A stretch of 64,000 bases of DNA from an uncultured Gemmatimonadaceae bacterium (GCA_963829055.1 CAWHHI010000008.1:256001-320000), one strand, 5' to 3'; shown: positions 28,911 through 50,170, counted from the first letter of the stretch. The notes: generated from the sequence alone by a model not told the origin. Numbers and translations are program-made.

Positions 28911-28917
28911 GCACGGC

Positions 28918-29088
28918 TGTCATTCCGAGCGGAGCGTCGAAGCGCGAGTCGAGGAGGGTTGTCATTCCGAGCGGAGCCGCGAAGCGGCGGAGTCGAGGAA
29001 TCGAGACCATCCTGGTAGAGGGCTCTCTACCCATCACAGTCGCGATTCCTCGACTCCGCGCCTTCGGCGCTCCGCTCGGAATGACAAC
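28918..29088. repeat. REP-like long palindromic intergenic element, copy 2, with partial duplicated left arm
   Basis: Same ends and central hairpin as 24014-24168; between convergent genes. Confidence 0.85.
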
Positions 29089-29093
29089 CGCTC

Positions 29094-30986
29094 CTATGAC
29101 TCGGCGGCCATCGTCTCGAGCGCCTCCCAGCGCGCCATCGATTCCGCAATCTCGGCATCGAGCGTCTCGAGCCGTTGCTTCGCGCTGACCACCGCTGCGC
29201 CATCTCGCAGGAACGCCGGGTCTCCGAGAGACGCGTAGAGCGCCTCCCGCTCTCGCTCCAACGCATCGATACGATCCGGCAGCGCCGTCAGCTCCGCCTT
29301 GTCACTGAAGGAGAGACGTCGCCGCTTCTCCGTCCGCCGCGGTGCGCGCGGTGTCGGTGGCGGCGCCGCCGGAGCAACCTTCGCGCGACGCGGCGGGCGC
29401 TGGCGAATCCAGTCGCTGTACCCGCCCACGTACTCACCGACGCGTCCGTCTTCCTCCATCACCAGCGTGCTCGTGACGACGTTGTCGAGAAACGCGCGAT
29501 CGTGGCTGACGAGCAGGAGCGTCCCCGAGAACTCGAGCAGCAGATCCTCCAGCAGATCGAGCGTCTCGATGTCGAGGTCGTTCGTCGGCTCATCGAGGAC
29601 GAGCACGTTGAACGCTCGCGTGAACAGCCGCGCGAGCAGCAGTCGATTGCGCTCACCGCCCGAGAGCGCACGAACGGGTGTGCGAGCGCGATCCGGCGGG
29701 AACAGGAAATCCTGCAGATATCCGTTGACGTGCTTGCGCCCACCGCCGACGTCCACGAAATCCGCGCCGTCCGCGATGCTCTCGAACACGGTGCGCTCGG
29801 GATCGAGCTGCTCGCGCAGCTGATCGAAGTACGCGATCTCCAACCCGGTGCCGGTGCGCACCGTGCCCGCGTTAGGCTCGAGCTCGCCGAGCAGCAGGCG
29901 GAGCAGCGTGGTCTTGCCGGACCCGTTTCGACCGATGATGCCGACGCGATCACCGCGCGTGATCGTCGTGCTGAAATCGCGCACGATGGTGCGCTCGCCG
30001 TGCGCGAACGTCACGTCCCGCGCCTCGAATACGAGACGCCCCGACCGCTCGGCCTCCGCCGCCTGTAACTTCACGGTCCCAGTCCTGTCGCGTCGCGCAC
30101 CTCGTTCCCGTCGCAACGCCTCGAGCGCGCGGACGCGTCCTTCGTTTCGAGTTCGCCGAGCCTGAATCCCCGTGCGGATCCAGACCTCCTCCTTCGCGAG
30201 CTTCTTGTCGAACTCCGCCCACTCGCGCCCCTCGGCCGCGAGCGCGGCTTCCTTCCGCTCGAGGTACGACGCGTAGTCGGTGCCCCAGTCGACGAGCTGC
30301 CCGCGGTCGAGCTCCACGATTCGCGTCGCGACGCGGCGCAGGAACGCGCGATCGTGCGTCACGAACAGCAGTGTCGTTCCGTCGTCGATGAGGAACTCCT
30401 CCAGCCACTCGATCGCCTCGATGTCGAGATGGTTCGTGGGCTCGTCGAGCAGCAGGACGTCGGGGTGACCAACGAGGGCGCGCGCCAGCAGCGTCTGACG
30501 CTTCCGTCCGCCTGACGCGCGCGCGAACGGCGCATCGGCGTCGAGCCCGAGGCGCAGCAACACCGTGTCGACGCGCGACTGAATCTCCCAGGCACGCGCG
30601 GCGTCGAGTGCGTGATGGAGCCGGTCCAATTCGCGAACGGCGGCATCGTTGCCGCCGACGGCAACGTCGTGACTCGCCTGGTGATACCGCGCGATGAGTC
30701 GTCCGGTCTCGCCCAGCCCGGCGGCGACGACGTCGAACGTCGTACCCTCGATGTCCCCGGGAACTTCCTGCTCGAGCCGGGCGACGGTGATGCCAGTTTG
30801 CCGGACAACCGCCCCGGAATCGGGAAGGGTGCTACCATCCAGGAGCCGCATGAGCGTGCTTTTCCCGGCACCATTGCGACCGAGGACGCACACGCGCTCT
30901 CCACGCTCGATCGCGAGGTCGGCGTGGTCGAGCACCGGCGGTCCTCCGAACGCAATGCTGACTTCGCGGATACTTATTACAGCCAT
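29094..30986 (-). CDS. uup: ABC-F family ATPase Uup
   Basis: Two ABC cassettes (GRNGAGKS, GRNGSGKT, LDEPTN x2), WIRTGIQARRTRNEGRVRAL, C-terminal coiled coil RWEALE. Confidence 0.92.
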   Translation of the reverse strand: MAVISIREVSIAFGGPPVLDHADLAIERGERVCVLGRNGAGKSTLMRLLDGSTLPDSGAVVRQTGITVARLEQEVPGDIEGTTFDVVAAGLGETGRLIARYHQASHDVAVGGNDAAVRELDRLHHALDAARAWEIQSRVDTVLLRLGLDADAPFARASGGRKRQTLLARALVGHPDVLLLDEPTNHLDIEAIEWLEEFLIDDGTTLLFVTHDRAFLRRVATRIVELDRGQLVDWGTDYASYLERKEAALAAEGREWAEFDKKLAKEEVWIRTGIQARRTRNEGRVRALEALRRERGARRDRTGTVKLQAAEAERSGRLVFEARDVTFAHGERTIVRDFSTTITRGDRVGIIGRNGSGKTTLLRLLLGELEPNAGTVRTGTGLEIAYFDQLREQLDPERTVFESIADGADFVDVGGGRKHVNGYLQDFLFPPDRARTPVRALSGGERNRLLLARLFTRAFNVLVLDEPTNDLDIETLDLLEDLLLEFSGTLLLVSHDRAFLDNVVTSTLVMEEDGRVGEYVGGYSDWIRQRPPRRAKVAPAAPPPTPRAPRRTEKRRRLSFSDKAELTALPDRIDALEREREALYASLGDPAFLRDGAAVVSAKQRLETLDAEIAESMARWEALETMAAES

Positions 30987-33163: not shown

Positions 33164-34324
33164 CTAGAAGCTCAGATGCGACGCCAACCGCTCCAGACTC
33201 GCGAGATCATGCGCCGGAGCGAAGACGTCCACGTGAGGCAGCGCCGCTTCCATGCCTCGGGTCAGCGGACGATACGTCGGGCTCCCGAGAAGCGGGTTGA
33301 GCCAGATCACGCGCCCCGCCTTCCTGCGGATCTCACGAAGCGCGGTGCTCAGGACCTCGGGATCGCCAGTATCCCAGCCATCGCTCAACACGATCACCGC
33401 CGTGCGTCGATCGAACAGCCGAGGCCAGCCGAGTCGCAGCGCCTCGAGGCTCTCGCCGATCTTCGTTCCGCCGGACCACCCACCATCGGGCACGGCGGCG
33501 AGCGCGTCGAGCGCCTCGCGATACGTGTCTCGCGACAACGACTCCGTGATGCGAACGAGTCGTGTGCTGAACGCGAACGTCTCGATACGCGCGAACGCGT
33601 GCTGTAACGCGTAGAGCACCTGCAGCAGGAACCGGCTGTAGAGGTCCATCGAGCCAGAGACGTCGCACGCAACGACCAGCTTCGTTCGCCGAACTTTGCG
33701 TTGCCGCCGGACGAGCCGGATGGGATCGCCGCCCGTCGCGAGTGCGAGACGGACAATGCGCCGCGGATCCAGGCGCCCGCGGTGACCCGCACTTCGCCAC
33801 CGCCGGCTGCGACGGGCACGGAGGCGCCTAACGATCCGGGCAATTGCGCCCGCCAGCGCATCGAGATCGTCACCGCCGTAGAGGCGAAAGTCCTTCGTCG
33901 CCGCGCCCTCCCGCACGCTCGGCGCCGCCAACGGAATCGTCTCCTCTCCTTCGGCGTCAGCCAGCGACGACGCCCAGCGGGTGAGCGCGGTACTTCCCGT
34001 CGCCGTCTTCGGCTCATCCGTCGGGGAGATGACGGGAGGGTTCGTCGCCGCGCCGCGCCTGCTTGGCACGGTCCCGTCGTGACTCGCGTCGCGTCGCCCC
34101 CACCAGGCCTCGAACAGCTCGTCGAACAAGTCGAGGTCCTGCCGGCGCGTCACGAAGAGCGTCCGGAGCGCCAGATACACGTCCATGCGATCCGTAGCGT
34201 CCACGGCAGCCAGGACGCGAACCGCCTCGATGGACGTCGCCGGCGTCGCGGCGATCCCACGTTCGCGCAGCAGCCGGCTGAACTGCGTGGCGAAGGTGAC
34301 GGGATCGACCGCCGCGGCCGTCAC
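33164..34324 (-). CDS. coxE: CoxE-like VWA domain protein
   Basis: MIDAS DVSGSM, WSGGTKIG, SDGWD, WLNPL; cox context. Confidence 0.88.
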   Translation of the reverse strand: MTAAAVDPVTFATQFSRLLRERGIAATPATSIEAVRVLAAVDATDRMDVYLALRTLFVTRRQDLDLFDELFEAWWGRRDASHDGTVPSRRGAATNPPVISPTDEPKTATGSTALTRWASSLADAEGEETIPLAAPSVREGAATKDFRLYGGDDLDALAGAIARIVRRLRARRSRRWRSAGHRGRLDPRRIVRLALATGGDPIRLVRRQRKVRRTKLVVACDVSGSMDLYSRFLLQVLYALQHAFARIETFAFSTRLVRITESLSRDTYREALDALAAVPDGGWSGGTKIGESLEALRLGWPRLFDRRTAVIVLSDGWDTGDPEVLSTALREIRRKAGRVIWLNPLLGSPTYRPLTRGMEAALPHVDVFAPAHDLASLERLASHLSF

Positions 34325-35217
34325 CCCGCGGTGCGCCCTGCCGCGACCATCGCGCTGGCGCCTCGGTCGCTGACCTCACGTCGAACCTGGCGGACGTCCG
34401 CTTCGTCCTTGAGCACGCAGCCTAACGTCTCGGACACGACGTCGTCATCCAGCGTGTTTGCCCCGATCACCACCAGCGCGCGCGCCCAATCGATCGTCTC
34501 GGCCACGCCTGGCGTCTTCACGAGACGCTGGCGTCGAACGGCCTGCACGAACGCCGCGACATCGGCGGCGAGCTGCTGGTCGATCACCGGAACCTTGGCG
34601 CGAACGATCTCGATCTCCTTCGACAGCGACGGATAGTCGATCCACAGGTAGAGACACCGGCGGCGCAGCGCCTCGGACAGCTCGCGCGTCCGGTTCGACG
34701 TCAGCACCGTACATGGCTCGTTCGTCGCGCGGATCGTCCCGATCTCGGGGATCGTCACCTGATGTTCCGACAGCACCTCCAGCAGGAACGCCTCGAACTC
34801 CTCGTCGCTGCGATCGACCTCGTCGATGAGCAGCACCGTCGTCTGCGTGGCGCGGATGGCGCGAAGCAACGGTCGCTCGAGCAGAAACGCCTCGCTGAAG
34901 ATCTGCGCCTCGCGCTCGCCGACCGATTGCCCGGAGCCTTCCCCCAGCTTGATGTGCAGGAGTTGCTTGGCGTAGTTCCACTCGTAGAGCGCCGTCGCGA
35001 CGTCGAGTCCCTCGTAGCACTGCAGCCGGATGAGGTCCGTTGCGAGCACGCGCGCGAGAACCTTCGCCACCTCGGTCTTGCCAACGCCCGGCGGACCTTC
35101 GATGAGCAGCGGCTTGTGGAGCGTCATGGCGAGGTACGCCGACGTCGCTGTCGCGCGATCGGTGACGTACCCCTGCTCTGCCATCGCTTGCTGAACGCGC
35201 GCGATCTCTTCCTTCAC
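34321..35217 (-). CDS. coxD: CoxD/MoxR-type AAA+ ATPase
   Basis: EGPPGVGKT, RLQCYEGLD, LLIDEVDRSDEEFEAFLLE, ALRRRC. Confidence 0.9.
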   Translation of the reverse strand: MKEEIARVQQAMAEQGYVTDRATATSAYLAMTLHKPLLIEGPPGVGKTEVAKVLARVLATDLIRLQCYEGLDVATALYEWNYAKQLLHIKLGEGSGQSVGEREAQIFSEAFLLERPLLRAIRATQTTVLLIDEVDRSDEEFEAFLLEVLSEHQVTIPEIGTIRATNEPCTVLTSNRTRELSEALRRRCLYLWIDYPSLSKEIEIVRAKVPVIDQQLAADVAAFVQAVRRQRLVKTPGVAETIDWARALVVIGANTLDDDVVSETLGCVLKDEADVRQVRREVSDRGASAMVAAGRTAG

Positions 35218-36242
35218 GTCGCCTGTCCCGCCTGACGACGCAGGTAGGTCGCCTTGCATCCGGGGCAGCAGAAGTAGACGGTGCGCTCGCCTTCGACGAT
35301 CGTGTGGCGAGCGGTCGTCGTGTCCACTGGCATGCCACACACCGGGTCGACCGCCATTGCCGGTACAGCGGTGCGAGGACCGGTGCGCCTCGCGAGCGGC
35401 GTCGGCACGTCCACCGAGTGCGGAGCAGCAGTCACCGCCTGCGTGGCGTTAGGCTTCCGGTACCGCCGCTGCACGATCTCCGCCAGCACGCTGAGGGCTA
35501 TCTCCGAGGCGCTCATGCCGCCGAGGTCGAGTCCGGCCGGAAATTTCACGCGCGCGAGTCGATCGGCACCGATCCCCGTCGCCGCGACGTAGTCGATGAG
35601 GTAATGCGCCTTCTTGCGACTGGCGACCAGTCCTATGTACGCCGCGTCGCTCGCCGCCGCCGCCGCGAGCGCCTCTTCGTCGCCGGCACCCATCGTTCCC
35701 ACGACGACGAACGTGGAGTCATCGGCACGAGCAACGGCCGCGGTGATGTCAGACGTTAGGCGTATGCCCGGGGGAAACAGGTCCGCCGGCAGCGCAGCGG
35801 AACCGACGACGACCTCGAACCCGAGCTCGGCGCCTTGCCTCGCGAGGGACTGCACCACCGGTGTATGCCCGAGCAGCACGAGGCGCGGCGCCGCGAGCAC
35901 CGGCTCCAGGTAGATCTCGATGCCCCCTTCACCCTGGCAGGTCATGGGATACTCGCGCACGTCGCCATGGCGGGTCGGGTCGGTATTGGCGGGCCCCGCG
36001 CCGGCATTCATGCGAACGAGCCGAGGCCGTCCGTCGGCGAGCGCGTCGGCCGCTTCCTGCCTGACGACTGGCTGCACACACCCACCGCCAACCCACCCGT
36101 CGATGGCCCCGTCCGCCCGCACGATCGCCTTCGCACCCGGCCGCACACTCTGCGGTGGGTAGCTCGCGACGACGGTCGCCATGACGAATGGCGTCCGGTC
36201 GGCGCGAAGCTGAGCAGCGGTCGTGAAGATATCGTTGGTCAT
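35214..36242 (-). CDS. XdhC/CoxF-CoxI-like molybdoenzyme maturation factor with C-terminal YHS domain
   Basis: GWVGGGC, MTCQGEG, YIGLVAS, PAGLDLG, EIALSVLAEI; tail DPVCGM..YFCCPGC. Confidence 0.87.
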   Translation of the reverse strand: MTNDIFTTAAQLRADRTPFVMATVVASYPPQSVRPGAKAIVRADGAIDGWVGGGCVQPVVRQEAADALADGRPRLVRMNAGAGPANTDPTRHGDVREYPMTCQGEGGIEIYLEPVLAAPRLVLLGHTPVVQSLARQGAELGFEVVVGSAALPADLFPPGIRLTSDITAAVARADDSTFVVVGTMGAGDEEALAAAAASDAAYIGLVASRKKAHYLIDYVAATGIGADRLARVKFPAGLDLGGMSASEIALSVLAEIVQRRYRKPNATQAVTAAPHSVDVPTPLARRTGPRTAVPAMAVDPVCGMPVDTTTARHTIVEGERTVYFCCPGCKATYLRRQAGQAT

Positions 36243-36548
36243 CGGATGACAGCGGGGACTGGGGACTGGGGACTGGGGACTGGGTCGTTCAGGCGAGCAG
36301 CGAGCAGCGCGTGGTGTGCCGGGCGGTATTAGCAGCAGCGGGCAGCGTGCGGCCGCAGCATGCAGCCGTCGGCAGATGTGCCCAGCGTGCAGCTCAGTCC
36401 CCAGTCCCCAGTCCCGATGTCCTATCCTGTCCCTCTCTTCTCTCCAAGAATCTGCCACACCTCGAACGGCGTGATGGGAATGTAGATGCACCTGACCCCC
36501 GGATGCCACGGGGCGTCCACTACCGCGTCCGCGATCCCCGGCGGTGCG
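36201..36548. repeat. Left copy of the direct duplication flanking the cytochrome insert (xdhC 5' end + intergenic + decayed coxL 3' end)
   Basis: Matches 45169..45578; contains (GGGGACT)4 at 36254 and (AGTCCCC)-type array at 36395-36415. Confidence 0.9.
36422..36548 (-). pseudogene. Decayed duplicate of the coxL 3' end
   Basis: APPGIADAVVDAPWHPGVRCIYIPITPFEVWQILGEKRGTG* versus CoxL [41 protein letters not shown]. Confidence 0.85.
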
Positions 36549-36571
36549 ATACGGTACGTGATGTCACCACG

Positions 36572-38098
36572 TCACCGGCCTTTCGGAATCGAATTGCCGT
36601 GACACGCGGTGCACAGCGATGGATTCTTCGCCCGCATCCGATCGGCGTTGAACCCCGGCCCGTGAGGGCTGAATCTGAACCCGCCGTTCACGGCCGAATG
36701 GCACGCCGTGCAGTCGCGCTCCGCATGGCAGGCCACGCACGACTCCAGACTCTGCCGCGCCGCCTGGCCGTGGCCGAGGCTGAAGTTGCGATAGGCGTCG
36801 TGATAGCCAGCCTGGCCGAGTCGCGAAGTAGCGACGAGACCTGACTTTTGGTGACAGGCCTGGCAGAACTGCGCCGCGTTGTGGCAGTCGCTGCAGTTCG
36901 CCTCGCGAGCGTACGCGGAGCTCGGGTGCCGCGTGAGAAACTGCGGAGGATGGTAGCCGACCTGTCGCGTGACGTCGGGGCGATGACAGTCGAGACATGT
37001 CGAGCGCACGTGGCAGGTCTCGCACGAGGACGGACGTGAATTTGCGGCTGACCCGTGCCGTTCCTTGAACTCGGGCGTGTGGTTCGCCGGCGGCACTCGC
37101 GCGAGCTGCACTCCTACCCCACGGCCCGGACCGGCGACTGGCATGGCATTCACAACGCGGGTCTGCACCCCGATGTGGCAGCTCACGCAGCTCTCACGGG
37201 CGTGGCACGTGACGCAGTTCGCACCGGTGCGCTGCGCGTCCTTCCCATGCGCGCGGATGAAGTTGGCGGATTCGTGACTTGGCGGCGCTGGCAGCGATGA
37301 CGTGTAGGCAGGCGACCGATCATCCATCGCGAGCGCGCGAATCACGGGCGATTCGGGCGCGTTGACGTGGCAGGTAATGCAGAAGTTCTGCGCGTGGCAG
37401 GTGGCGCAGCTGGCCGAGACCGCCATCGGTCCGGAGGTGGCTGATCCTTTCGCGGCTCTGCCGTGGCCTCCGGTCAGGAAGTCGGCCGCGTCGTGGGACC
37501 GTGGCTTCGGGAACAGCGCGATGTCCTCACGCGTTAGGCTCCGTGCAGCCGTAACGGGCACGTGACAGGTCGCGCACGCCTCGCTCGGGACGTCCACGTG
37601 AGGCCCCCTGAATCCGTGACAGCTCACGCATTGATTCACGACCGCGCGCGTGACCTCCATGCGCGGCGCGCCGCGCTCGTTATGACAGGCGGCGCAATTC
37701 CCGTTGAGCGTACTGTCGGCAGGATTCTTCGCCGTTGCGGCGCGGGCGTGCGCCTCGTGCGTGAACCGGAGGTTGCGCGTTGGCAGGCCGGCGGTGCGAG
37801 GCTGCCAGGTCACGCGCTGCTGGATGACACCATCGTGGCACGACGCGCACCCCGATGGATTCGGCAATATCGGCTGGCCCGCCTGCGTGACTCCCGCATG
37901 GCACGTTGCGCAGAGCGGAAAGAGCCGAGCGTGTCTCGAGTGCTGGAAGCGGTCCTCGCGTGCCGCGCTGGCACGAACCGCCGGCGGCAGGACACGTGCA
38001 GCGACCGCGTCCACACCCCACGTTGCCACCCCGAGCGCGACGGCGCCGAGCGCACCGACGGCGAGCAGCGTACCGACGACGTGGCGACGTGCGGTCAT
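36572..38098 (-). CDS. Periplasmic multiheme cytochrome c (16 CxxCH)
   Basis: Signal/TM N-terminus; 16 CxxCH motifs counted, many in paired CxxCH-x4-CxxCH arrangement. Confidence 0.9.
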   Translation of the reverse strand: MTARRHVVGTLLAVGALGAVALGVATWGVDAVAARVLPPAVRASAAREDRFQHSRHARLFPLCATCHAGVTQAGQPILPNPSGCASCHDGVIQQRVTWQPRTAGLPTRNLRFTHEAHARAATAKNPADSTLNGNCAACHNERGAPRMEVTRAVVNQCVSCHGFRGPHVDVPSEACATCHVPVTAARSLTREDIALFPKPRSHDAADFLTGGHGRAAKGSATSGPMAVSASCATCHAQNFCITCHVNAPESPVIRALAMDDRSPAYTSSLPAPPSHESANFIRAHGKDAQRTGANCVTCHARESCVSCHIGVQTRVVNAMPVAGPGRGVGVQLARVPPANHTPEFKERHGSAANSRPSSCETCHVRSTCLDCHRPDVTRQVGYHPPQFLTRHPSSAYAREANCSDCHNAAQFCQACHQKSGLVATSRLGQAGYHDAYRNFSLGHGQAARQSLESCVACHAERDCTACHSAVNGGFRFSPHGPGFNADRMRAKNPSLCTACHGNSIPKGR

Positions 38099-39576
38099 CG
38101 CCGCGTCGGTCGTGCGGGAGGCAACGCCAGCCGGTCCGCGCCGGAGCCGAACGACGCACTCACCCCGGTGCGGATGCGAAACTGCGACAACGATGACGCG
38201 CTGGCATCGGGTCGATCGCGCTCATCATTGACGAGTGTGACGTCAGCCCAGAGGCGGTACTCGGTACCGAACTGGCGCTCGCCGCGGGCGCCGATCCACA
38301 GACTGCTGGCGTCGTAGAAGCGCAGCTCGAGCGGCCGGTCCAGGGCCCCGCCGTGGACGTCGAACGAGTACGCGGCGTTAGGCGCCCAGCGCACGGCAGC
38401 GTCGGCGAACCGGGCGGAGGCGCCGGGCCCGTGCTCGAATCCGAGGTTGCCGTCGACGCTCCAGCGCGGATTCAGCGTGGCGGTCCCACCGCCGCTCGTC
38501 CGCCAGCCGCGATCCTCGAGGTCCGGGACGAGCGCCGTCGAGACGCCGGCGTCCTCGTACCGGTATGCTTCGCCGCGAGCATGCAGCGTCAGGCGGTCGG
38601 TCGCGCGAACGTCGGCCGACGCATTCACCGCGTTGTACGGCACCGGGCTGAACGCGCTCCACAGCGACCACAGACTGAAATAGGGCCGGTAGCGCCGCGC
38701 TCCACCGGTGACCGACAACCGCGGGCGCGTGTACGTGACTGTGACGTCCGCGCTCCCCACGGCGCCTTCGGCAATGTTGTAGTCGGCGCTGCCGGCGACA
38801 TGAAACGACGCGAGCTGTGCGCCGAGCGAGATGACCGTGCGCTCCGAGACGATGTTGTTGTCCCGCGGGTCGATTTCCCGGCGGTACTCCGCGCGGGTGT
38901 CGATGTCGCTGGAGTGCCACCCGGCTTCGACGCCCGCCACGATCTGCCGATCGGCAGGGCGCCACTCATCCAGCGGATTCAACGCGGGACTGTACACCGG
39001 AACGACGGCCGCCCGACCCAGGCCCCACCCGGCGTAGCCGCCAAACTCGATCGATGCATCGCGCCAGCGGCCCTCGACCGATGCACCGTCGAATCCGAGC
39101 GGCTCGAGACGCGACGCCAGAAGCAGACGCCCGCCTCGGGCGATGAGCGACGGACGCCGGTACTCGACGAAGCCCTCGATCAGCTGCCCGGTCGGTTCGG
39201 TCGCGGGCCATGCGTCGTCCGGGCCCAGATCCGCGACCAGTCGGCCAGTCGCATGGATCGTGAGACCGGGGACACGCAGTCCCCAGAGGATCACGCTGCC
39301 GCTGGTCGACACGGGCACGCCACGGAGCTCGTCACCCGGCCTCGTGTAATAGCAGTAGGCGCTGTCGCTGCAGCGCACCGCGTGACCATCGGGCGTCTGG
39401 AACCCGCCGCTCGGGGATGGCACTACGGCCGTGGCCAGAATGCTGTCGGCGATGAGGCCGCGGTACGACACGGCCTGCCCTCGCGCGTCGAGGCGCACGC
39501 GGTAGTTCTGCGCGCCTAACGAACCGGCCCACACCGCGAGGATGCTCGCGGCGATCCACGCGCGACGCCGCCTCAT
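38095..39576 (-). CDS. Putative outer-membrane beta-barrel (porin of a porin-cytochrome complex)
   Basis: Signal peptide; alternating amphipathic beta strands rich in Y/W/G/R; lies between multiheme genes; C-terminal strand IRTGVSASF. Confidence 0.65.
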   Translation of the reverse strand: MRRRRAWIAASILAVWAGSLGAQNYRVRLDARGQAVSYRGLIADSILATAVVPSPSGGFQTPDGHAVRCSDSAYCYYTRPGDELRGVPVSTSGSVILWGLRVPGLTIHATGRLVADLGPDDAWPATEPTGQLIEGFVEYRRPSLIARGGRLLLASRLEPLGFDGASVEGRWRDASIEFGGYAGWGLGRAAVVPVYSPALNPLDEWRPADRQIVAGVEAGWHSSDIDTRAEYRREIDPRDNNIVSERTVISLGAQLASFHVAGSADYNIAEGAVGSADVTVTYTRPRLSVTGGARRYRPYFSLWSLWSAFSPVPYNAVNASADVRATDRLTLHARGEAYRYEDAGVSTALVPDLEDRGWRTSGGGTATLNPRWSVDGNLGFEHGPGASARFADAAVRWAPNAAYSFDVHGGALDRPLELRFYDASSLWIGARGERQFGTEYRLWADVTLVNDERDRPDASASSLSQFRIRTGVSASFGSGADRLALPPARPTRR

Positions 39577-41590
39577 CCTGAGGACTTGGTGAGCTTCGCC
39601 CGATACGCGCCTGGCTCAGTGAGAAAATGACAGGTGCTGCATTCCTGCTGCGGGTAGTGGTTCGCGGCCTTGGCCGAGTGGCACGTGCTGCAAAACGTTC
39701 TGGTGGGCGTGAGCTGCGCGACGGTTGCGGCCGCGTGGCAGGCGTCGCATCGCTGGTGCGCCACCTCGAGCGTCGCGTGGGCGGCTTTCGGGTCGGCGAG
39801 TGTATGGCATCCCGAACACGCGCGGCCGGCCGCGTGATGATCGCTGTGACAATCCTTGCACTGGGCAGTGGCCGGTGACGGCGCGAGCGTGACCGGCGTG
39901 GTGTGACACGCGGTGCACGTTCGCATGGAATGAGTGGCGTGCGAGAATTCCACAGGGCGCGGCGCGGCCTTGTGACCCGGGACGGTGACCGTCAGCGAGG
40001 CCGCGATGGGGGCGGCGAGCTCGTTAGGCTTGTGACACGAAGGGCACCGGGCCGCCGTGGGCTGCTGATGGTGGCAGATGGTGCACCCACGCGGCGGCTC
40101 GAACGTCAGGTGGCTCCGGGTCGACGTCGTCTGATGACAGACGAGGCACGCGATCTTTGCGTGCCTCGCGTGGGCAAACGTGTCGGCCTTGACGGGTGGT
40201 GGCCGTAACGGTGGAGCAATCCCTGGCGGGTCGTCGGCGATGCCTGGCGGGGGGCTCGTCGGCCGAGGGCCCGCTGGTCCGCGGCCGCGCGAGGAACGAC
40301 TCGATGGCCTGACGTACCACGGGCGGCGTCGGCGCGGCGCTCGTGCGGCGGAGTGCCCTGGTCGTATCGAAGGGCACCGGTGGCCGCACGTTCCCGCGAG
40401 ACCGGGCATTCGCGTGGCATCCCGTGCAGTCGCTCGCGTCGACCTTCGCCTGGTGCGGGGTGTGACACGTTAGGCATTGCGTCGGCTGCGAGGCGACCTT
40501 CTTGTGCGCGGCGCCGGCGTGGAACGGGTTGTCGCGCCAGCTGCCGTGACACGCGGCCGTCGTGCAGGTCTTGGCGGCCGCCGCTGTCGTCTCCTGCGTG
40601 TGCGGGTTGTGACACGTGCCGCACTTCCCACCGTGCGGGTCCTTGGCCGGGTCGAAATCCGGGAGCGCCTTCTTCATGTCGTGGCACCCGAAACACTGCG
40701 GCCCGCCCGGGACGAGCGTTCCGCGCGCCGAATCGCGCGTCGCGAGCGCGGGGACCTGAGCGGTGAAGTGCGTGACACACGGTGCAATGACGGATCGTCT
40801 GGTCGCGCATCTTGTCGAGCACGATCTTCGTGTCGTTCGCCTTGTGACACCCACTCTGGCCGCAGGTCGCGCGAGCGGGCTGGAAGCGGTGCACCTCCAC
40901 GCCGTGGCACGTCACGCATTTGACGTCCTTGAGCGCGCTCGAATCGGACTCGAGGTGGACGCGGTGCCCCGCCGTCGCCCGGATGCGCTGCCAGTTGGCG
41001 GTGTCCCCGGTGACGTGACACGTCTCGCAGACGCGATTCTCCACGGTCGCGTGCACGCCGATCTTGTCCGGCCGCTCCAGGAGCCAGAAGTAGAGCTGCC
41101 ACGCACTGGCGAACACCGACTGCGTGTGGCACGAGTGGCACGACAGCTCACCGTGCTTGTTCTCCGCGCTCGCGAACTTCGAGTACGCCGGGTGCATCAC
41201 GTGACACGACGTGCAGAAGTCGTTCGAGTGCTGCGTGTAGTTCCAGGTGGCGGTTCCCATGCCGACCGTCGCCACGAGCAGCACGGCCGCCCCGGCAACC
41301 AGCGCCACCGTCACGCCTCGGCTGCGTGACCTGAGCCAGGCGATGATGGCCGCGCGGTGCCTAACGAGGTACCAGACGACCACCACCGGCGACGATAGCC
41401 GCGACCACGAGCCCCGCCAGTTGCACCCACTGCGGAACCGTGGACAACAGGAACCGGGTGACCGCGGCAACGCCGCCGGGCAGCGGCGACTTGACGATGA
41501 CCGAATCCGGCGGTTGCACCGGCGTCGCTTGCTGCAACGCCGCCACCCAGAAGCGAATCGGGATGGCGGCGCTCGCGTGCAGTCCGGTCA
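39573..41590 (-). CDS. NapC/NirT-anchored large multiheme cytochrome (~20 heme motifs; frameshifted)
   Basis: TM helices, then NDFCTSCHVM, SCHSCH (NapC/NirT-like); 18 CxxCH + 2 CX4CH across ORFs 40106..41470, 40024..40854 and 39573..40409. Confidence 0.8.
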
Positions 41591-41610
41591 CGAGGCGCGG
41601 CGTGAGTGGT

Positions 41611-43181
41611 TTACCGGGCCTGACGCGCGGCGCCGGTCCGCGCCGCGGTGCTCGGCAGTCTGGCAACCAACGTCCTCATGAAGGCCTGTTGGGAGGTCTG
41701 TCCACTCGTCGCAACGTCCGCCAACGCGTAGTAGGTCTTGATGTAGGCGGTCGTCGACGACAGCAGCGCGTCGCACAGGAAGGGATTGTGAACCCCTTTC
41801 GAGTTGTCACTGTTCGACGCGCCGTACTCGCCGCAGAGTCGAGCGTTGAACTCGGCGCCCTCAGCTGCCGTGATGTCCGCGTGGTCCATTCGGCAGGACG
41901 CTGCTGCTTCACGATGGCGAGCAATCCGCCATCGGTTGGCGCGGCCTGAAGCGTGTTGTCCTTATTCGTGTCCAGCCACAGCTGTTCCGTGGCCGTCTTC
42001 ATGCGAGTGCGAACGCTGTTGAACACCGAGACCGCCACAGCCGCGTCTGCGTGACACCCGGACTGCGTGCAGGACTGCCAGGTTCGCGCGGCCGTCGTGT
42101 ACGCGCACGTCTTGTCGGCTGTCGGCTTGCCCGTGCGCATCCAGGCACGGGATCGGGCGGAACAAGTGGCCGGTCGCCTTGAACACGAAGTTGCCCGACG
42201 TCGGGTCGTTTACCGTGAACTGGAGCACGTGACAGCCCGCGCAGAGCTTCGGGTTCTTGGTCGTGGCGTGCGACCCATAGATCCGTGCGGTGTCGTACAC
42301 GAATCCGGGCGGGCGCCAGCCGGCGTAGCCCAGCAGCACGGCTCCCTGTGGCGCGTGCGGTGTGACCGTCGACGGCGGCTCCGGCTCTGCGCGCCGATTG
42401 TGGCACTTCATGCACAGGTTCTGATCGGGATCCGCGGAGGTCACCGGATAGCGCAACTGATTCGGATTCGACGACCCATGTGGGTCGTGGCAGGTTGCGC
42501 AGGTGGCCGGCGGTTGATAGTCGGTCGGGTTCGCCTTCTCGACGTAAGTTGGCATCGATGCCCCAGCGCGCGAGCGCACCGCGAGCCTCGTGGCAGCCGA
42601 CGCACGACGGATTCGACGCCCGCGACGTGTTCAGGTTCGCGTGTCGTGACTGCTTCCACTCATCCGTGAATGGATGGTGAGCCCCGGAATGACAGTCGCT
42701 ACAGTTGCCGGTGCCGTTCACGCCCAGCTCTGCCAGCGGTCTCACCAGGTTGCCCTGGCCCACCCCTTCCACGTGCTCCAGGCCTGCCCCATGGCAGCTC
42801 TCGCACTGGACGTCGTGGTAGACCGGGTCCTTGACGCCGTCCCATCCGGCAGTCGTGCCAGCGGCCGCGTTGCCCCTGCCGTTCGTTGTATGGCACCCGA
42901 AGCACGAGTCCTTCTTGCCCGGATTCGAGTTCAGTGTGTTGTAGGCCTTGGCATGATTCGTCATGCCCCAGCTGCCCTGGAAGTCGGCGTGACAATTACC
43001 GCACGTCGTCTTTTGCGTTGGTCGCGTCGTAGTAGCCGAGGAAGCTCGCCGCAGCCGCCGCCGGCGGATTGAACGGCGGCCGATCCTGGTACACGACGTC
43101 ATCTTCGCACGCCGTGAGCACGGCAACGGCGATCAGCGTGGCCTTCGCGAGAGCGAGCGGACTGAACGACGTGATGCGCAT
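41611..43181 (-). CDS. Multiheme cytochrome c lipoprotein (~9 heme motifs; frameshifted)
   Basis: Lipobox VLTAC; CGNCH, CFGCH, CESCH, CSDCH, CVGCH, CATCH, CMKCH, CAGCH, CTQSGCH; C-terminal GVHNP. Confidence 0.82.
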
Positions 43182-43472
43182 GGTGCGATGCAGGTTCGGG
43201 GCGAAGCCGTACCTACGAATGAGCGGAGTTCCGCCGAGAGATTGATGGCTCCATCCGGTCCGGAGCGATAGTCGGCGATTCCCCTAGAGCACCTCCTATA
43301 AAGGAAGAATCGGGCAATCTCCCGCCATTAGCCGTTCGTACCACTATCGGTAGTATTACGGACCGCCCATCGAGCCGCCTGGGCGGCGGAGACCTAACGC
43401 CGCCCGTTCAACGTAATTTGGGGTTCCGGGCACAGCCCAGCTCGGGTTGACTGCCGACCAGGAGGAGAGCTG

Positions 43473-45156
43473 ATGGCGGAGATCCGTCCCTGGCTTGCCC
43501 ATTACGACCCGGACGTGCCGGCCACGCTGGAGCCGTATCCGGAGCGGACGCTCCTCGACTACCTGTCCGAGAGCGCGCGCACGCATCCCGACAGCCCGGC
43601 CCTGCTCTTCAAGGGGCGTCGAGTGAGCTACGCGGAGCTCGAGCGCCAGAGCGACGCGTTCGCCGCCGCACTCGCAGCCAGTGGCGTCGTACCCGGAGAT
43701 CGGGTCGCGCTCTGCCTGCCTAACTGCCCACAGTTCCTCATCGGCGAGTTTGGTGCGTGGAAGGCCGGTGCCATCGCCTGCCCGCTGAATCCCACCTATA
43801 CCGAACGCGAGCTGCAGGAGGCGCTTTCCGCGAGCGGTGCGAAAACGGTCGTGGTGCTCAACCGCTACTACGACAAGCTGAAGGCCATCCAGTCTCAGAC
43901 GTCGCTGACGCGACTCATCGCCACGGGCATTAAGGAGTACCTGCCGCCTGAGCTCAGGATGGGTTACGAGCTGTTGAAGGAGCAGGAAGAGGGCGAGCAC
44001 ATCACGCTCCGTGACGACGACGAACGATTTGCCGAGGCTCTCGAGCGCCATCACACGGCGACGCGTCCTGCGCATCGTGTAGCCCCCAACGATCCCGCCG
44101 TGATTCTCATGAGTGGCGGGACGACGGGCACGCCGAAAGGCGTGCTCGGAACACATGGCGGCATGGTTGCAGCGGGCATGCAGCTCCGCGCGTGGCTTCG
44201 GCAGCGCGATGAACGAGTGGAGCGACACGATCATGCTCCCACTGCCGCTCTTTCATACGTACGCCAATAGCGGCGTGCAAAGCCTCGCGCTCGTCAACCA
44301 CAACCCGATCTCGCTCATCCCTAACGCGGGCGACTTCGGTGACATGCTGAAGGAGATCGCGACGGTGAAGCCGGCGTTCATCTGCGTCGTGCCAACGCTT
44401 CTCAGCGCAATCCTGAACCACAAGCTGGCCCGCGCCGGAAAGGTGGACTTTCGCTCGATCAAGCTCTGTTTCTGCGGCGCCGCCCCGCTCATGGCGGAAA
44501 CGCAGCGTCGCTTCGAGGAGCTGACTGGCGGCGTGATCGTGGAGGGCTACTCGCTGACCGAGGCGCAGATGGCGGTGCTCGCGAACCCCGTACGCGGCGA
44601 GAAGAAAATCGGATCGGTGGGCATGCCGCTGCCCGATGTCGATCTGCGCATCGTGGACAGCGACGACGGTACCACGCCCGTGCCGTTAGGCGACGTGGGC
44701 GAGATCGTGCTGTCCGCGCCGCAGCTCATGCTCGGGTACTGGCAGAGGCCGGAAGAAACCAGAGAGATGCTGCGCACGACCGACGACGGTCAGCGCTTGC
44801 TCTATACGGGCGACCTCGGGTACGTCGACCCGGACGGGTACGTCTTCATCGTCGACCGCAAGAAGGACCTCATCAAGACGAGCGGCTACCAGGTCTGGCC
44901 GCGCGAGATCGAAGAGGCGATCTCGACCCACTCGAGCGTCGCCGAAGTCGGGGTCGTGGGGCTGCCTGACAAGATGAGGGGTGAGTCGGTGAAAGCGTTC
45001 GTCGTGCTCCGGCCGGGAATGACCGCGACCGAGGCCGAGCTCAAGACGTTCTGCCGCGAGCGGCTCGCGCCGTACAAGGTGCCGTCGGACTTCGAGGTGG
45101 TGGCGGAGTTGCCGAAGTCACAGGTTGGCAAGGTGCTGCGCCGAGCGCTCAAATAG
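43473..45156 (+). CDS. Long-chain fatty acid-CoA ligase / AMP-binding enzyme (frameshift near 44200)
   Basis: MSGGTTGTPKG, LPLFH, EGYSLTE, YTGDLG, DRKKDLIK, LPKSQVGKVLRR. Confidence 0.9.
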
Positions 45157-45168
45157 CGGACCGGTGTT

Positions 45169-45578
45169 GGCGGGAAGCTGAGCAGCGGTCGTGAAGATAT
45201 CGTTGGTCATCGGATGACAGCGGGGACTGGGGACTGGGGACTGGGGACTGGGGACTGGGGCTGCACGCTGGGCACCTCAGCCGACGGCTGCATGCTGCGG
45301 CCGCACGCTGCCCGCTGCTGCTATTAGCGCCCGGTCACCCACGCGCTGCTCCGCGCAGCCGCACCCAGCGTCACCCAGCAACAAGCACGACCACCCAGCC
45401 ACCAGCTTGTAGTTGCCAGTCCCCAGTCCCCAGTCCCCAGTCCCGATGTCCTATCCTGTCACTCCCTTCTCTCGAAGAATCTGCCAGACCTTGAACGGCG
45501 TGATGGGAATGTCGATGTGCCTGACCCCCAGATGCCACAGCGCGTCCACGACTGCGTTCGCGATCGCCGGCGGCGCGC
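45169..45578. repeat. Right copy of the direct duplication (truncated xdhC start + intergenic + intact coxL 3' end)
   Basis: GAAGCTGAGCAGCGGTCGTGAAGATATCGTTGGTCATCGGATGACAGC identical to 36206 onward; (GGGGACT)5 at 45222, (CAGTCCC)4 at 45417. Confidence 0.9.
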
Positions 45579-47822: not shown

Positions 47823-48404
47823 TCAGTCGTCTTCCCGCGTGTCGAGGCGGCGAGTTAGGTCGGCTCTCGGCAGAGTCTCGGCGACGCAGCGCCTTCGCGT
47901 GGCGGGCAGTCGCGCGCGCTCGCGCGGCGCCGCATCCGCGCTCTCGGCGGCGTGCTGGATGGCCTTCACGATGTTCACGTAGCCCGTGCACCGGCACAGG
48001 TTGCCCGAGATCGCCTGCCGGATCTCTCCCTCGGTCGGGTTGTCGTTGTGCTCCAGCAAGCGCGGTCGCCGTCATCATCATGCCCGGCGTGCAGTAGCCA
48101 CACTGGAGACCGTGTTCTTCCTTGAACCCCGCCTGAACTGGGATGCAGGGCACCGCCCTGCTCGAGCCCTTCCACCGTGCGGATCGAATGCCCATCGGCC
48201 TGGACCGCGAACATGGTGCACGACTTCACCGGCGTGATCATCGACCAGCACGGTGCACGCACCGCAATGCGTCGTATCGCAGCCGATGTGCGTTCCCGTT
48301 AGGCGGAGGTTCTCCCGGATGAAGTGCACGAGCAGCAGCCGCGATTCGACGTCGGCCGAGTGCGCCTGGCCATTGACCGTGACGGTGATGTTGTGTGTGG
48401 ACAT
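47823..48404 (-). CDS. coxS: CO dehydrogenase small [2Fe-2S] subunit (frameshifted)
   Basis: [30 protein letters not shown]. Confidence 0.9.
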
Positions 48405-48406
48405 GG

Positions 48407-49304
48407 TCAGCTCTCTCGGTTGCCGATCTCGCCACGCGCGCGGCGCCCGGCGAGCGCCGAGCGCCCGCGTCGCGAGCACGCGAATGAGATCGCGTTTGTA
48501 CTCCTCGCTGCCACGTCGATCCGCGACAGGATCGGCGGCCGATGCGGCGAGCGTCGCCGCCTGCTCGATCGTACGCGGCGATCGAGCGGCTTGTTGAGCA
48601 GGAACGCCTCCGCCGCTCTCCGCGCGAATCGGCGTCGGTCCGACATTCGTTAGGGCGATGCCGGCCCGCTGGCACGGAACCGCTCGCGTCGACCGTCACC
48701 TGCGCGGCGACCGCCGCCGTCGCGAAGTCGCCGACCTTCCGCTCGAGCTTGAAGTACGCGCCACCGGACCGCGCCGGCGGCGACGGCATCGACGATCTCG
48801 GTCACGATCTCGTCCGGCTCGAGCACCGTCGTGAACAGTCCCACGAAAAAGTCGCGCGCAGCGACGGTGCGCGTTCCGGTCGCGCCGCGAATCACGAACG
48901 ACGCGTCGAGCGCGATCATCGTCGCCGGATGATCGTTGCCCGGATCTCCGTGCGCGACGTTGCCGCAGATCGTCGCCGAGTTGCGCACGATCGGGTCGGC
49001 GATCACGCGTGCCGTGTCGTAGCAGCAACGGATACCGATCGCGCACGACCGCAGAGCGCTCGAGCTCTGCCTCGCGCGCGAGCGCGCCAATGCGCAGCGC
49101 ACCATCGCGTTCCTCGACGTAATCGAGCCCGGGAATCCGGTTGATGTCCACGAGCACGGTGGGAGTGGCGAGGCGAAGCTTGAGCATCGGAATCAGACTC
49201 TGACCACCCGACAGCACCTTCGCTTCACCGCCGTGCTCGCGCAGCAGCGTCACGGCATCGTCCAGGGTGGAGGGCGCGACATAATCGAACCGCGACGGAA
49301 TCAT
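48407..49304 (-). CDS. coxM: CO dehydrogenase medium FAD subunit (frameshifted)
   Basis: [50 protein letters not shown]. Confidence 0.9.
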
Positions 49305-49434: not shown

Positions 49435-50170
49435 ATGTCGATCCGAATCGAAGAGGTCTTCGAGATTCAGGCGCATCCCGATCGTGTGTGGGCCTACCTC
49501 ACCGATCCGCGACAGGTCGTGAATTGTCTTCCCGGCGCCGAGCTCACGTCCGTGCAGGACGAGACGACGTTTCTCGGCCGAGTGAAGGTGAAGGTCGGAC
49601 CGATTTCGACCGCGTACGCCGGCAAGGTGATTCTCACCGGAGCGACGATGACGCCAATCGCGTCGTGCAGATGATCGGCGAAGGACGCGAGAGCGGCGGC
49701 ACCGGGTCAGCGAAGATGACGATGACGAGCATCGGTCGTTCGAGGCTCGCAAGCGGCAGCCACCGAGGTCCGCGTCGTCGCGGACATCGACATTGTCGGA
49801 CGCATCGCGCAGTTCGGGCGTGGGATGATCGAGAGCGTGAACAAGCAGATGTTCAAGCAGTTCACGGAGTGCGTCCGCGCGACGCTGGCGACGCCGATCG
49901 CGCCGACGCCCGCCGAGTCGGCGACCGACGCCATCAGCGCCATCTTCGATGATGCCGACCAGCCGCCCGCCGCAGCCGACCCGTCGGCGACGCCAGCCGC
50001 GCAATCGCAGTCATCCGTCGCTGGCGACACCCACGTCGGGCTCCATCGTACCTGGCGATCGCCACTGCCGAGCGCACCACCCGCCGCGCCCGCCCACGAT
50101 CGCGGGCAACCGGTGCGCTGATCCCGGTCTTGCTCCCGCGCTTCGTCGACTACCTCGGTCGGTCTCCTGA
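49435..50170 (+). CDS. coxG: CoxG/SRPBCC family protein (frameshifted)
   Basis: DRVWAYLTDP..CLPGAEL, KVKVGP, GRIAQFGRGMI; divergent from coxM. Confidence 0.8.

Follow-up and report, generated by a model that had tools for sequence, protein, structure and literature searches.

The cytochrome locus

The window analysed here is a 64,000-nucleotide stretch of the genome of an uncultured Gemmatimonadaceae bacterium (GCA_963829055.1, CAWHHI010000008.1:256001-320000), with positions counted from its first nucleotide. Four co-oriented genes on its minus strand, between 36572 and 43181, carry 9, 20, 0 and 16 haem-binding motifs and lie between coxL of a form I carbon monoxide dehydrogenase (CODH) and the maturation genes xdhC-coxD-coxE. 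On the minus strand of this cluster, six-frame translation of 36400-43500 yielded 42 motifs of the CXXCH and 3 of the CX4CH type. Its plus strand has no CXXCH motif, and 200 base shuffles gave 0.125 on average and 2 at most. The four genes, of which the last two junctions (20-haem/barrel and barrel/16-haem) are 4-nt overlaps, are as follows.

41611..43181, minus strand: 9-haem lipoprotein (8 CXXCH and 1 CX4CH), lipobox LTAC, predicted surface terminal cytochrome, OcwA/OmhA-like
39573..41591, minus strand: 20-haem cytochrome (18 CXXCH and 2 CX4CH), predicted to combine a quinol dehydrogenase of the inner membrane with a periplasmic wire
38095..39576, minus strand: predicted outer-membrane beta-barrel, about 22 strands, no plug, 493 amino acids
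36572..38098, minus strand: 16-haem exported cytochrome with a c7/c3-like N-terminal part and a paired-motif C-terminal part predicted to thread the barrel

A first-pass annotation, made from the sequence alone, had described some 45 haem motifs in four packed genes at this place, a 16-haem gene ending about 330 bp before xdhC, and an acyl-CoA ligase gene separating coxL from the maturation genes. All three points hold: the 16-haem stop codon and the xdhC ATG at 36242 are 329 bp apart, and the ligase gene (plus strand, 43473-45156) is divergent from the cytochrome genes and convergent with coxL.

The first two cytochrome genes, the ligase gene and coxMSL are frameshifted in the assembly. Relative to intact relatives, single-base indels are found near 43022, 42546, 42133 and 41880, all four in the lipoprotein gene, and near 41383 and 40771, with a short deletion near 40247. 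These frameshifts had been flagged early on. They are most likely assembly errors, because the orthologues are intact, the surplus bases at 40771, 43020 and 44204 are missing from near-identical contigs of public runs, which contain extra letters at 40247-40250, and comparable +1 indels run through coxMSL and unrelated neighbouring non-cox genes, up to 55 kb. The structure models were built from intact natural orthologues rather than from the frameshifted genes.

A predicted barrel and its predicted cytochrome partner

The product of the third gene matches no Pfam or NCBIfam family. Its model (predicted local distance difference test, pLDDT, 75) has about 22 antiparallel strands by DSSP count, and residues 20-477 align to outer-membrane barrels with Z scores of 15-18.5 and root-mean-square deviations of 4-5 Å over 290-365 residues. 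No single barrel stands out; the best alignments include 22-strand TonB-dependent barrels, and MtrB reaches a Z score of 15.8. The model and the full-length alignment thus support the beta-barrel at 38095-39576 on which the first-pass annotation had made its interpretation depend.

Modelled together, the barrel and the 16-haem protein gave a complex score of 0.81, and the best of three controls gave 0.00. The mark for this score is reached by 116 of 157 solved complexes and by 2 of 215 mismatched pairs, a calibration that is approximate here since our own alignments were used. The runs agree in at least 83% of contacts, with a partner pLDDT of at least 73. Contacts join cytochrome residues 278-499, mainly 338-499 (haem motifs 10-16), to alternating residues on nearly all strands, and the C-terminal part of the 16-haem protein (haems 10-16) is predicted to sit in the barrel lumen.

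A profile of the barrel found nothing significant in the PDB, single-protein sequence searches of the PDB returned motif-level matches only, and none of the four proteins or of their distant homologues scored above the cut-off of a full-length NCBIfam family. Matches in a protein atlas were unnamed Gemmatimonadota clusters and generic barrel families. A homologue search started from distant barrels found 13 proteins, all of them unnamed, and none that linked these barrels to named Pcc porins.

The 9-haem lipoprotein and the 20-haem protein

The lipoprotein has nine motifs, a PF13435 match, a core of c554- and NrfA-type haems, and long helices at 378-399, 437-448 and 465-482. When its profile was compared with the PDB, OcwA (6I5B, E 9e-15) and OmhA (6QVM, E 1e-12) came first, followed by MtrA and octahaem nitrite reductases. 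A lipobox is present in 47 of 49 aligned homologues, and the protein presumably resides on the outer surface. Two loci (L037 and L149) have two tandem copies of the lipoprotein gene, and a small dihaem lipoprotein, not found in the source genome, is encoded upstream in L033 and occurs in three other loci. Near related barrel clusters, homologues of the 9-haem lipoprotein (L197, 16061-18424; L199, 16483-18810) end in a C-terminal sorting tail resembling those of type IX secretion or FlgD, which suggests that members of the family are exported by more than one route.

Two N-terminal hydrophobic helices are present in 4/4 intact orthologues of the 20-haem protein, which may, from homology, be a quinol dehydrogenase of the NapC/NrfH type. 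Its gene varies among relatives. It is missing between the lipoprotein and barrel genes in L037 and L035, and is reduced to its last nine haems in seven loci (L113, L114, L123, L127, L130, L145 and L153), one of which, L145, carries an 11-haem NapC-type half downstream, on the other strand and next to ccm genes. A different cluster, in L107 (7317-14649), encodes cytochromes with 12, 12, 33 and 9 haems, and the start of the 33-haem protein resembles the 20-haem protein.

Distribution in the Gemmatimonadota

The barrel profile matches 116/251 genomes of the phylum, seven of them weakly. All three cytochromes flank the barrel at 38 of the 39 genome loci with enough flanking sequence, the exception being a split lipoprotein. 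Gene order is conserved across the genome loci, and haem counts depart little from 9/20/0/16. In another class of the phylum, distant relatives combine a 410-residue barrel (hhalign 99.6%) with an 11-14-haem cytochrome and a different lipoprotein. Near-typical copies in L153, L160 and L109, labelled Kuenenia, Bacillota or Vicinamibacterales, probably come from mislabelled or mixed bins and were not taken as evidence of occurrence outside the phylum.

Thirty-eight of the 76 genome loci have at least one of six genes tested (molybdoenzyme, NrfD, NiFe hydrogenase, cytochrome b, ccm) nearby; molybdopterin oxidoreductase was counted at 21 loci, NrfD at 16, ccmF at 10 and NiFe hydrogenase at 6. The sets of relative, genome and metagenome loci used in this work overlap, and kin among the loci are not independent. 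A recurrent neighbour operon (L119, 1-5900; L146, 15300-20200; and similar ones) encodes a molybdopterin oxidoreductase, 5-haem and 4-haem cytochromes, an Fe-S protein and NrfD.

Searches of a mostly open-access literature brought up no account of this cluster or of such a linkage to cox, with the proviso that figure 6 and table S2 of one source (PMC13264449) may include a Gemmatimonadota cluster. In the accessible part of a genomic study of the phylum (PMC10581226), no such conduit appears under the terms cytochrome, heme or electron transfer, multiheme terms being outside that search. Other literature consulted in part comprises PMC12133095, PMC6794299 and PMC9671151.

Comparison with known conduits

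Taken together, the barrel fold, the docking of the cytochrome in the barrel, the OcwA/OmhA-like lipoprotein without a CXXCK motif and the conserved gene order sustain the earlier proposal of a non-Mtr porin-cytochrome conduit. We conclude that the predicted conduit is real and widespread and would work like Pcc and Mtr systems; it is not Mtr, and membership of Pcc is unproven.

The Pcc system of the Geobacter type (OmbB-OmaB-OmcB) is described as having a porin-like protein of 18-22 predicted strands and a periplasmic cytochrome of 5-14 haems, its members being defined by sequence similarity (PMC4245776). The cluster resembles it in combining a barrel, of about 22 strands here, with a periplasmic multihaem cytochrome and a lipoprotein cytochrome, and in the atypical CX3-4CH motifs of the lipoprotein (PMC4245776). 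The distant clusters with 11-14 haems fit the haem range described for Pcc. In contrast, the barrel-associated cytochrome of our cluster has 16 haems, the operon itself includes a gene for a 20-haem protein with a putative NapC-type anchor, and the presumed surface partner is a 9-haem OcwA-like protein. The C-terminal part of the 16-haem protein may resemble OmaB.

With CymA-MtrCAB of Shewanella, the cluster shares a candidate quinol dehydrogenase of the NapC/NirT type, a cytochrome predicted to lie inside a barrel and a putative surface lipoprotein cytochrome. However, MtrB has 26 strands (26-28 in the Mtr/Mto/Pio type), its identity with our barrel in structural alignments is 9-11%, and the barrel matches no MtrB family in Pfam or NCBIfam. 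There is no decahaem MtrA/DmsE protein but proteins with 16 and 20 haems, which score 19-39 bits for TIGR03508 against a cut-off of 192. The lipoprotein is not MtrC-like, and the candidate quinol dehydrogenase continues into a stretch with 16 further haems. OcwA of Thermincola potens and OmhA of Carboxydothermus ferrireducens share with the lipoprotein the c554-like N-terminal part, the C-terminal helices and, in OcwA, nine haems; unlike them, it is a lipoprotein encoded beside a barrel, and it retains the distal His pairs only in part.

A probable insertion into the form I cox operon

The CODH genes and the segments around the cytochrome cluster are as follows.

43473..45156, plus strand: acyl-CoA ligase (AMP-binding), PF00501/PF13193
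45451..47780, minus strand: coxL, form I Mo-Cu CODH large subunit, AYRCSFR, frameshifted in the assembly
47850..49304, minus strand: coxM and coxS, approximate limits, several +1 indels
49459..49887, plus strand: coxG, divergent from coxMSL
33164..36242, minus strand: xdhC (coxF/I-type, with YHS), coxD (AAA) and coxE (VWA), intact, single-copy CODH maturation genes
36422..36548, minus strand: decaying duplicate (relic) of the 3' end of coxL (last ~42 codons with the stop, ~127 nt), ~87% identical, the downstream half of the insertion scar
36243..36421, no strand: copy B of the intergenic segment, with inverted short tandem arrays around a repetitive extragenic palindrome (REP)-like core
45211..45450, no strand: copy A of the intergenic segment after intact coxL, with the same arrays and the REP-like core in the opposite orientation
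45174..45210, minus strand: truncated duplicate of the first 12 xdhC codons, 37 nt, 18 nt from the ligase stop, the upstream half of the insertion scar

Gene set, M-S-L order and the AYRCSFR loop are those of a form I cox operon. We take AYXCSFR to be the mark of the active-site loop of form I Mo-Cu CODH. Each of the three CoxL fragments has TIGR02416 as its best NCBIfam family, and the C-terminal part of CoxL is 96% identical to that of a congener. A second, form II-like paralogue (coxS-L-M, AYRGAGR) is encoded on contig C6 (358400-362400); in the congeners G001 and G005, a form II-like cox cluster lies within ~10 kb of the ligase gene. The operon differs from known ones in the 9-kb block between coxL and the maturation genes, which is seen in this species only.

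The segment comprising the coxL end, spacer and xdhC start (~340-400 bp) is duplicated on both sides of this block, which contains the cytochrome genes and the ligase gene. The first-pass annotation had not noticed this duplication. The coxL relic starts right after the 16-haem stop codon and is followed by the repeat-bearing spacer and the true xdhC. On the other side, the region after coxL (45160-45460) folds as a long hairpin (-170 kcal/mol, z -5.7). The core of about 100 bp, which resembles a REP or a miniature inverted-repeat transposable element (36291-36395 and 45260-45351), has 57 BLAST hits on 13 of the 20 contigs, and nine copies of the C8 REP-like core are also found on contig C11. 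Recombination with the form II paralogue was ruled out as the source of the relic, which matches form I coxL. The source genome has 73 short tandem heptamer arrays, and the coxL-xdhC gap of congeners has similar arrays around a different sequence. Another short palindromic repeat occurs at 28916-29103 of the window, and it flanks genes in L061 and L062 as well.

Form I coxL is present in 4/6 congeners, xdhC follows it directly at 5/5 loci with an assembled 3' end, and neither insertion junction was found in the six congeners (0/6). One of them, G001, has two form I coxL 3' ends (C315 and C100), each followed by xdhC. An independent metagenome contig, L060, aligns over 40352-33164 (7.2 kb, 96.6% identity), through the 16-haem gene, the coxL relic, xdhC, coxD and coxE. 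The relic in the window differs from coxL at 11/99 sites and from the L060 relic at 5/99 sites plus a ~35-bp deletion, the two relics having decayed separately; synonymous divergence (dS) from G005 is 0.7-1.3. As the junction is duplicated and the site is intact in congeners, we infer that the block was inserted. Judged by these alignments, the insertion is real; it predates the separation of the window and L060 strains and is far more recent than the divergence from G005.

In G005, L061, L069 and L082, where the cluster is not beside form I cox, the ligase gene adjoins it; in G006 and G002 the ligase and lipoprotein genes are 3-12 kb apart, so that cluster and ligase likely moved as one block, recently, into the coxL-xdhC junction. 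G005 has two ligase copies (C108 and C110) that are only 80% identical, either paralogues or products of mixed bins. Integration of a circle and duplication followed by deletion both fit as the route. Genomes of the genus are heavily rearranged, and no clean donor site could be located in the source genome, where the ancestral neighbours are dispersed over C4, C6, C13 and C20.

The linkage to cox is not shared by relatives. Cox genes were found at 0/20 relative loci; xdhC, coxD or coxE at none of the 76 genome loci, 49 of which have at least 4 kb downstream, with form I cox beside the cluster at 0/76; and xdhC/coxD/coxE at one of the 48 metagenome loci, the near-identical L060 of the same species (39 of these loci have a match reaching the 3' end, 33 of them with at least 500 nt downstream). 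Two genome loci do have distant Mo-hydroxylases. Neither the form II-like coxS/L (AYRGAGR) found downstream in L130 nor the 29% Mo-hydroxylase of L151 is a form I CODH. Because the cluster stands beside form I cox only in this species and the scar marks an insertion, the CO link is probably a species-level insertion rather than a conserved module, and the adjacency incidental. A built-in link to CO oxidation, which the first-pass annotation had suggested, is therefore not supported: one of the outcomes that it had itself named as refuting, no cox linkage elsewhere and no co-expression, has essentially come about as far as linkage goes.

Proposed electron flow and its alternatives

We consider it reasonably likely that the four genes form a self-contained outward conduit, widespread in Gemmatimonadota, that was moved with the ligase gene into the coxL-xdhC junction and left a scar there. 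With a NapC/NrfH-like head as its anchor in the inner membrane, the 20-haem protein would oxidise quinol, and its chain of haems would span the periplasm as far as the N-terminal haem groups of the 16-haem protein. Haems 10-16 of the latter are predicted to thread the 22-strand barrel, from which the 9-haem OcwA-like lipoprotein may hand electrons to Fe(III), humics or other surface acceptors. The outward direction and the order of carriers are inferred. The source genome also has ccmF and ccmC, and a weak fragment is all that it offers as a match to NrfA. Elsewhere in it are an 8-motif multihaem protein of the c554/paired type (C15, 32400-33700) and an ActA-like pentahaem cytochrome (C16, 131600-132100).

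Electrons from CO would reach the wire only indirectly, by way of CoxG and then the shared quinone pool; CoxG passes CODH electrons to menaquinone in Mycobacterium (10.1101/2024.01.09.574806). This route is open to any quinol-consuming chain, and it needs no gene adjacency. As a side effect of the insertion, the hairpin and the convergent gene would cut xdhC-coxD-coxE off from coxMSL, so that their transcription would now start in the cytochrome operon or at a promoter within the scar.

Several observations weigh against this reading. The Foldseek matches of the lipoprotein, in which OcwA and OmhA again rank first, are weak (E 0.02, TM 0.32), and its model has a middling pLDDT of 66. In the 20-haem protein, the first domain matches NrfH (2J7A, E 2e-8) over ~70 residues only, PF03264 scores 21.9 bits against a cut-off of 24.1, and TIGR03153 is also under its cut-off. 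The complex was modelled without haems, the position in the lumen was read from the contact list and not from coordinates, and likeness to MtrAB structures may raise the complex score. OmbB, OmaB and OmcB are absent among the matches of the PDB, NCBIfam and homologue searches. The coxL-side junction is present only in this assembly, and with 38/76 loci adjoining respiratory modules, the position next to an enzyme that donates electrons may be more than chance. In the mostly open literature, as far as its accessible parts go, no Gemmatimonadota strain is reported to perform extracellular electron transfer. Finally, several haem-copper oxidases are encoded in the source genome, and Mo-Cu CODH is an aerobic enzyme.

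Anatomy alone does not fix the direction of flow, and the conduit could instead work inward, carrying electrons from Fe(II), reduced humics or minerals to the quinone pool and supporting photo- or chemolithoautotrophy in this bacterium. Indeed, contig C11 (~310000-330000; L221) carries pufL, pufM, pufC, pufA, puhA, acsF, bchY and bchZ interleaved with genes for the RuBisCO large subunit and phosphoribulokinase, which makes it possible, on gene content, that the source species is a photoautotroph with CODH. A RuBisCO small-subunit-like open reading frame was also noticed by eye in this cluster. The accessible part of a survey reports no pufLM in metagenome-assembled genomes of soil Gemmatimonadota (PMC10581226), while DNA near-identical to the window occurs in rhizosphere, soil and sediment runs. 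NapC/CymA-type proteins have been proposed as quinone reductases in Fe(II) oxidisers (PMC6295460). However, pufLM was not found in 6/6 congeners (77-92% complete), four of which have a full barrel match. Among solved structures, those closest to the lipoprotein are of Fe(III) or electrode reductases (PMC6703420, PMC7829351), and the modules adjoining the cluster in relatives resemble donor enzymes. We regard an inward conduit as unlikely.

It is tempting to speculate that selection has kept the insertion, placing CODH maturation and the conduit under one control and creating a pathway from CO to extracellular acceptors in this species. The maturation genes are intact, and ratios of non-synonymous to synonymous substitution (dN/dS) between the window and L060, both of which post-date the insertion, are 0.089 for xdhC, 0.086 for coxD and 0.053 for coxE. 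As they are single-copy and under purifying selection, these genes are likely still expressed, either from the cytochrome operon or from the scar, and read-through from the cytochrome promoter is plausible. No sigma-70-like promoter was found in the 329-bp gap, in a weak consensus test whose promoter and terminator scan gave no more sites than shuffled sequence. CoxG, the protein that passes CODH electrons to menaquinone in Mycobacterium (10.1101/2024.01.09.574806), is encoded here too. In one soil RNA library, near-identical contigs cover the lipoprotein gene, but such contigs cannot show transcription, its level or co-transcription, and no weight attaches to their absence over the rest of the locus. 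Nevertheless, the arrangement is confined to one species (0/76 genome loci, 1/48 metagenome loci) of a heavily rearranged genus, the block includes an unrelated ligase gene that interrupts read-through from coxL, and coxMSL is not co-oriented into the cytochrome operon. Purifying selection speaks for use of the genes, not for their co-regulation, and we find a selected insertion rather improbable.

The lipoprotein might also be a catalytic chain end that reduces a soluble substrate such as nitrite, hydroxylamine, NO or a sulphur compound rather than a mineral. It falls within the c554/NrfA/octahaem superfamily, and OcwA is a slow nitrite reductase that also acts on hydroxylamine (PMC6703420). 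The distal non-bonding histidines H282 and H381 are described as conserved in all OcwA/OmhA proteins (PMC9250108). By eye, the His-His pair of the OcwA haem-2 pocket (H282 equivalent) maps to this gene and to 22/49 homologues. In contrast, the second distal histidine of OcwA haem 5 (H381 equivalent, mapped through the OmhA profile alignment) is replaced: it occurs in 0 of 44 matched homologues, which have HA (39), HS (3) or HG (2), the motif being unmatched in five others. CXXCK, the motif of the catalytic haem of NrfA, is missing in 49/49 aligned homologues, which argues against a nitrite reductase of the NrfA type; a catalytic nitrite or sulphur reductase had been named early on as a refuting identity. 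A soluble substrate, moreover, needs no dedicated cytochrome threaded through a barrel. A catalytic end to the chain thus seems very unlikely to us.

Lastly, misassembly at the REP-like repeat is scarcely credible as the source of the placement inside the cox operon: the assembly is rich in indels, the repeat is multi-copy and the coxL-side junction has no independent support, but L060 holds the 16-haem gene to coxE in a single alignment, and the divergence of the relics is not something that assemblers create.

Significance for the Gemmatimonadota

Gemmatimonadota abound in soils and sediments and have been described, for the most part, as aerobic organotrophs. A bolder combination of our observations would have about half of the phylum carrying a hitherto undescribed one-operon wire that leads from quinol to an OcwA-like cytochrome at the cell surface, with the recent insertion putting CODH maturation under the wire promoter here and switching on CO oxidation and extracellular electron transfer together, in a phototrophic, RuBisCO-bearing species of soil and sediment; we hold this combination as a whole to be improbable.

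The place of the cluster in the cox operon is the lesser point; it shows that genes can come to lie within an operon recently and incidentally. A natural experiment on the co-regulation of CODH maturation and the conduit is nevertheless at hand in strains that have or lack the insertion. A surface cytochrome of the OcwA type, known from Gram-positive thermophiles, would here be joined to a diderm porin complex. If our reading of the conduit is true, a 45-haem wire in 116/251 genomes would add a large, unrecognised group to the redox cycling of iron and humic substances.

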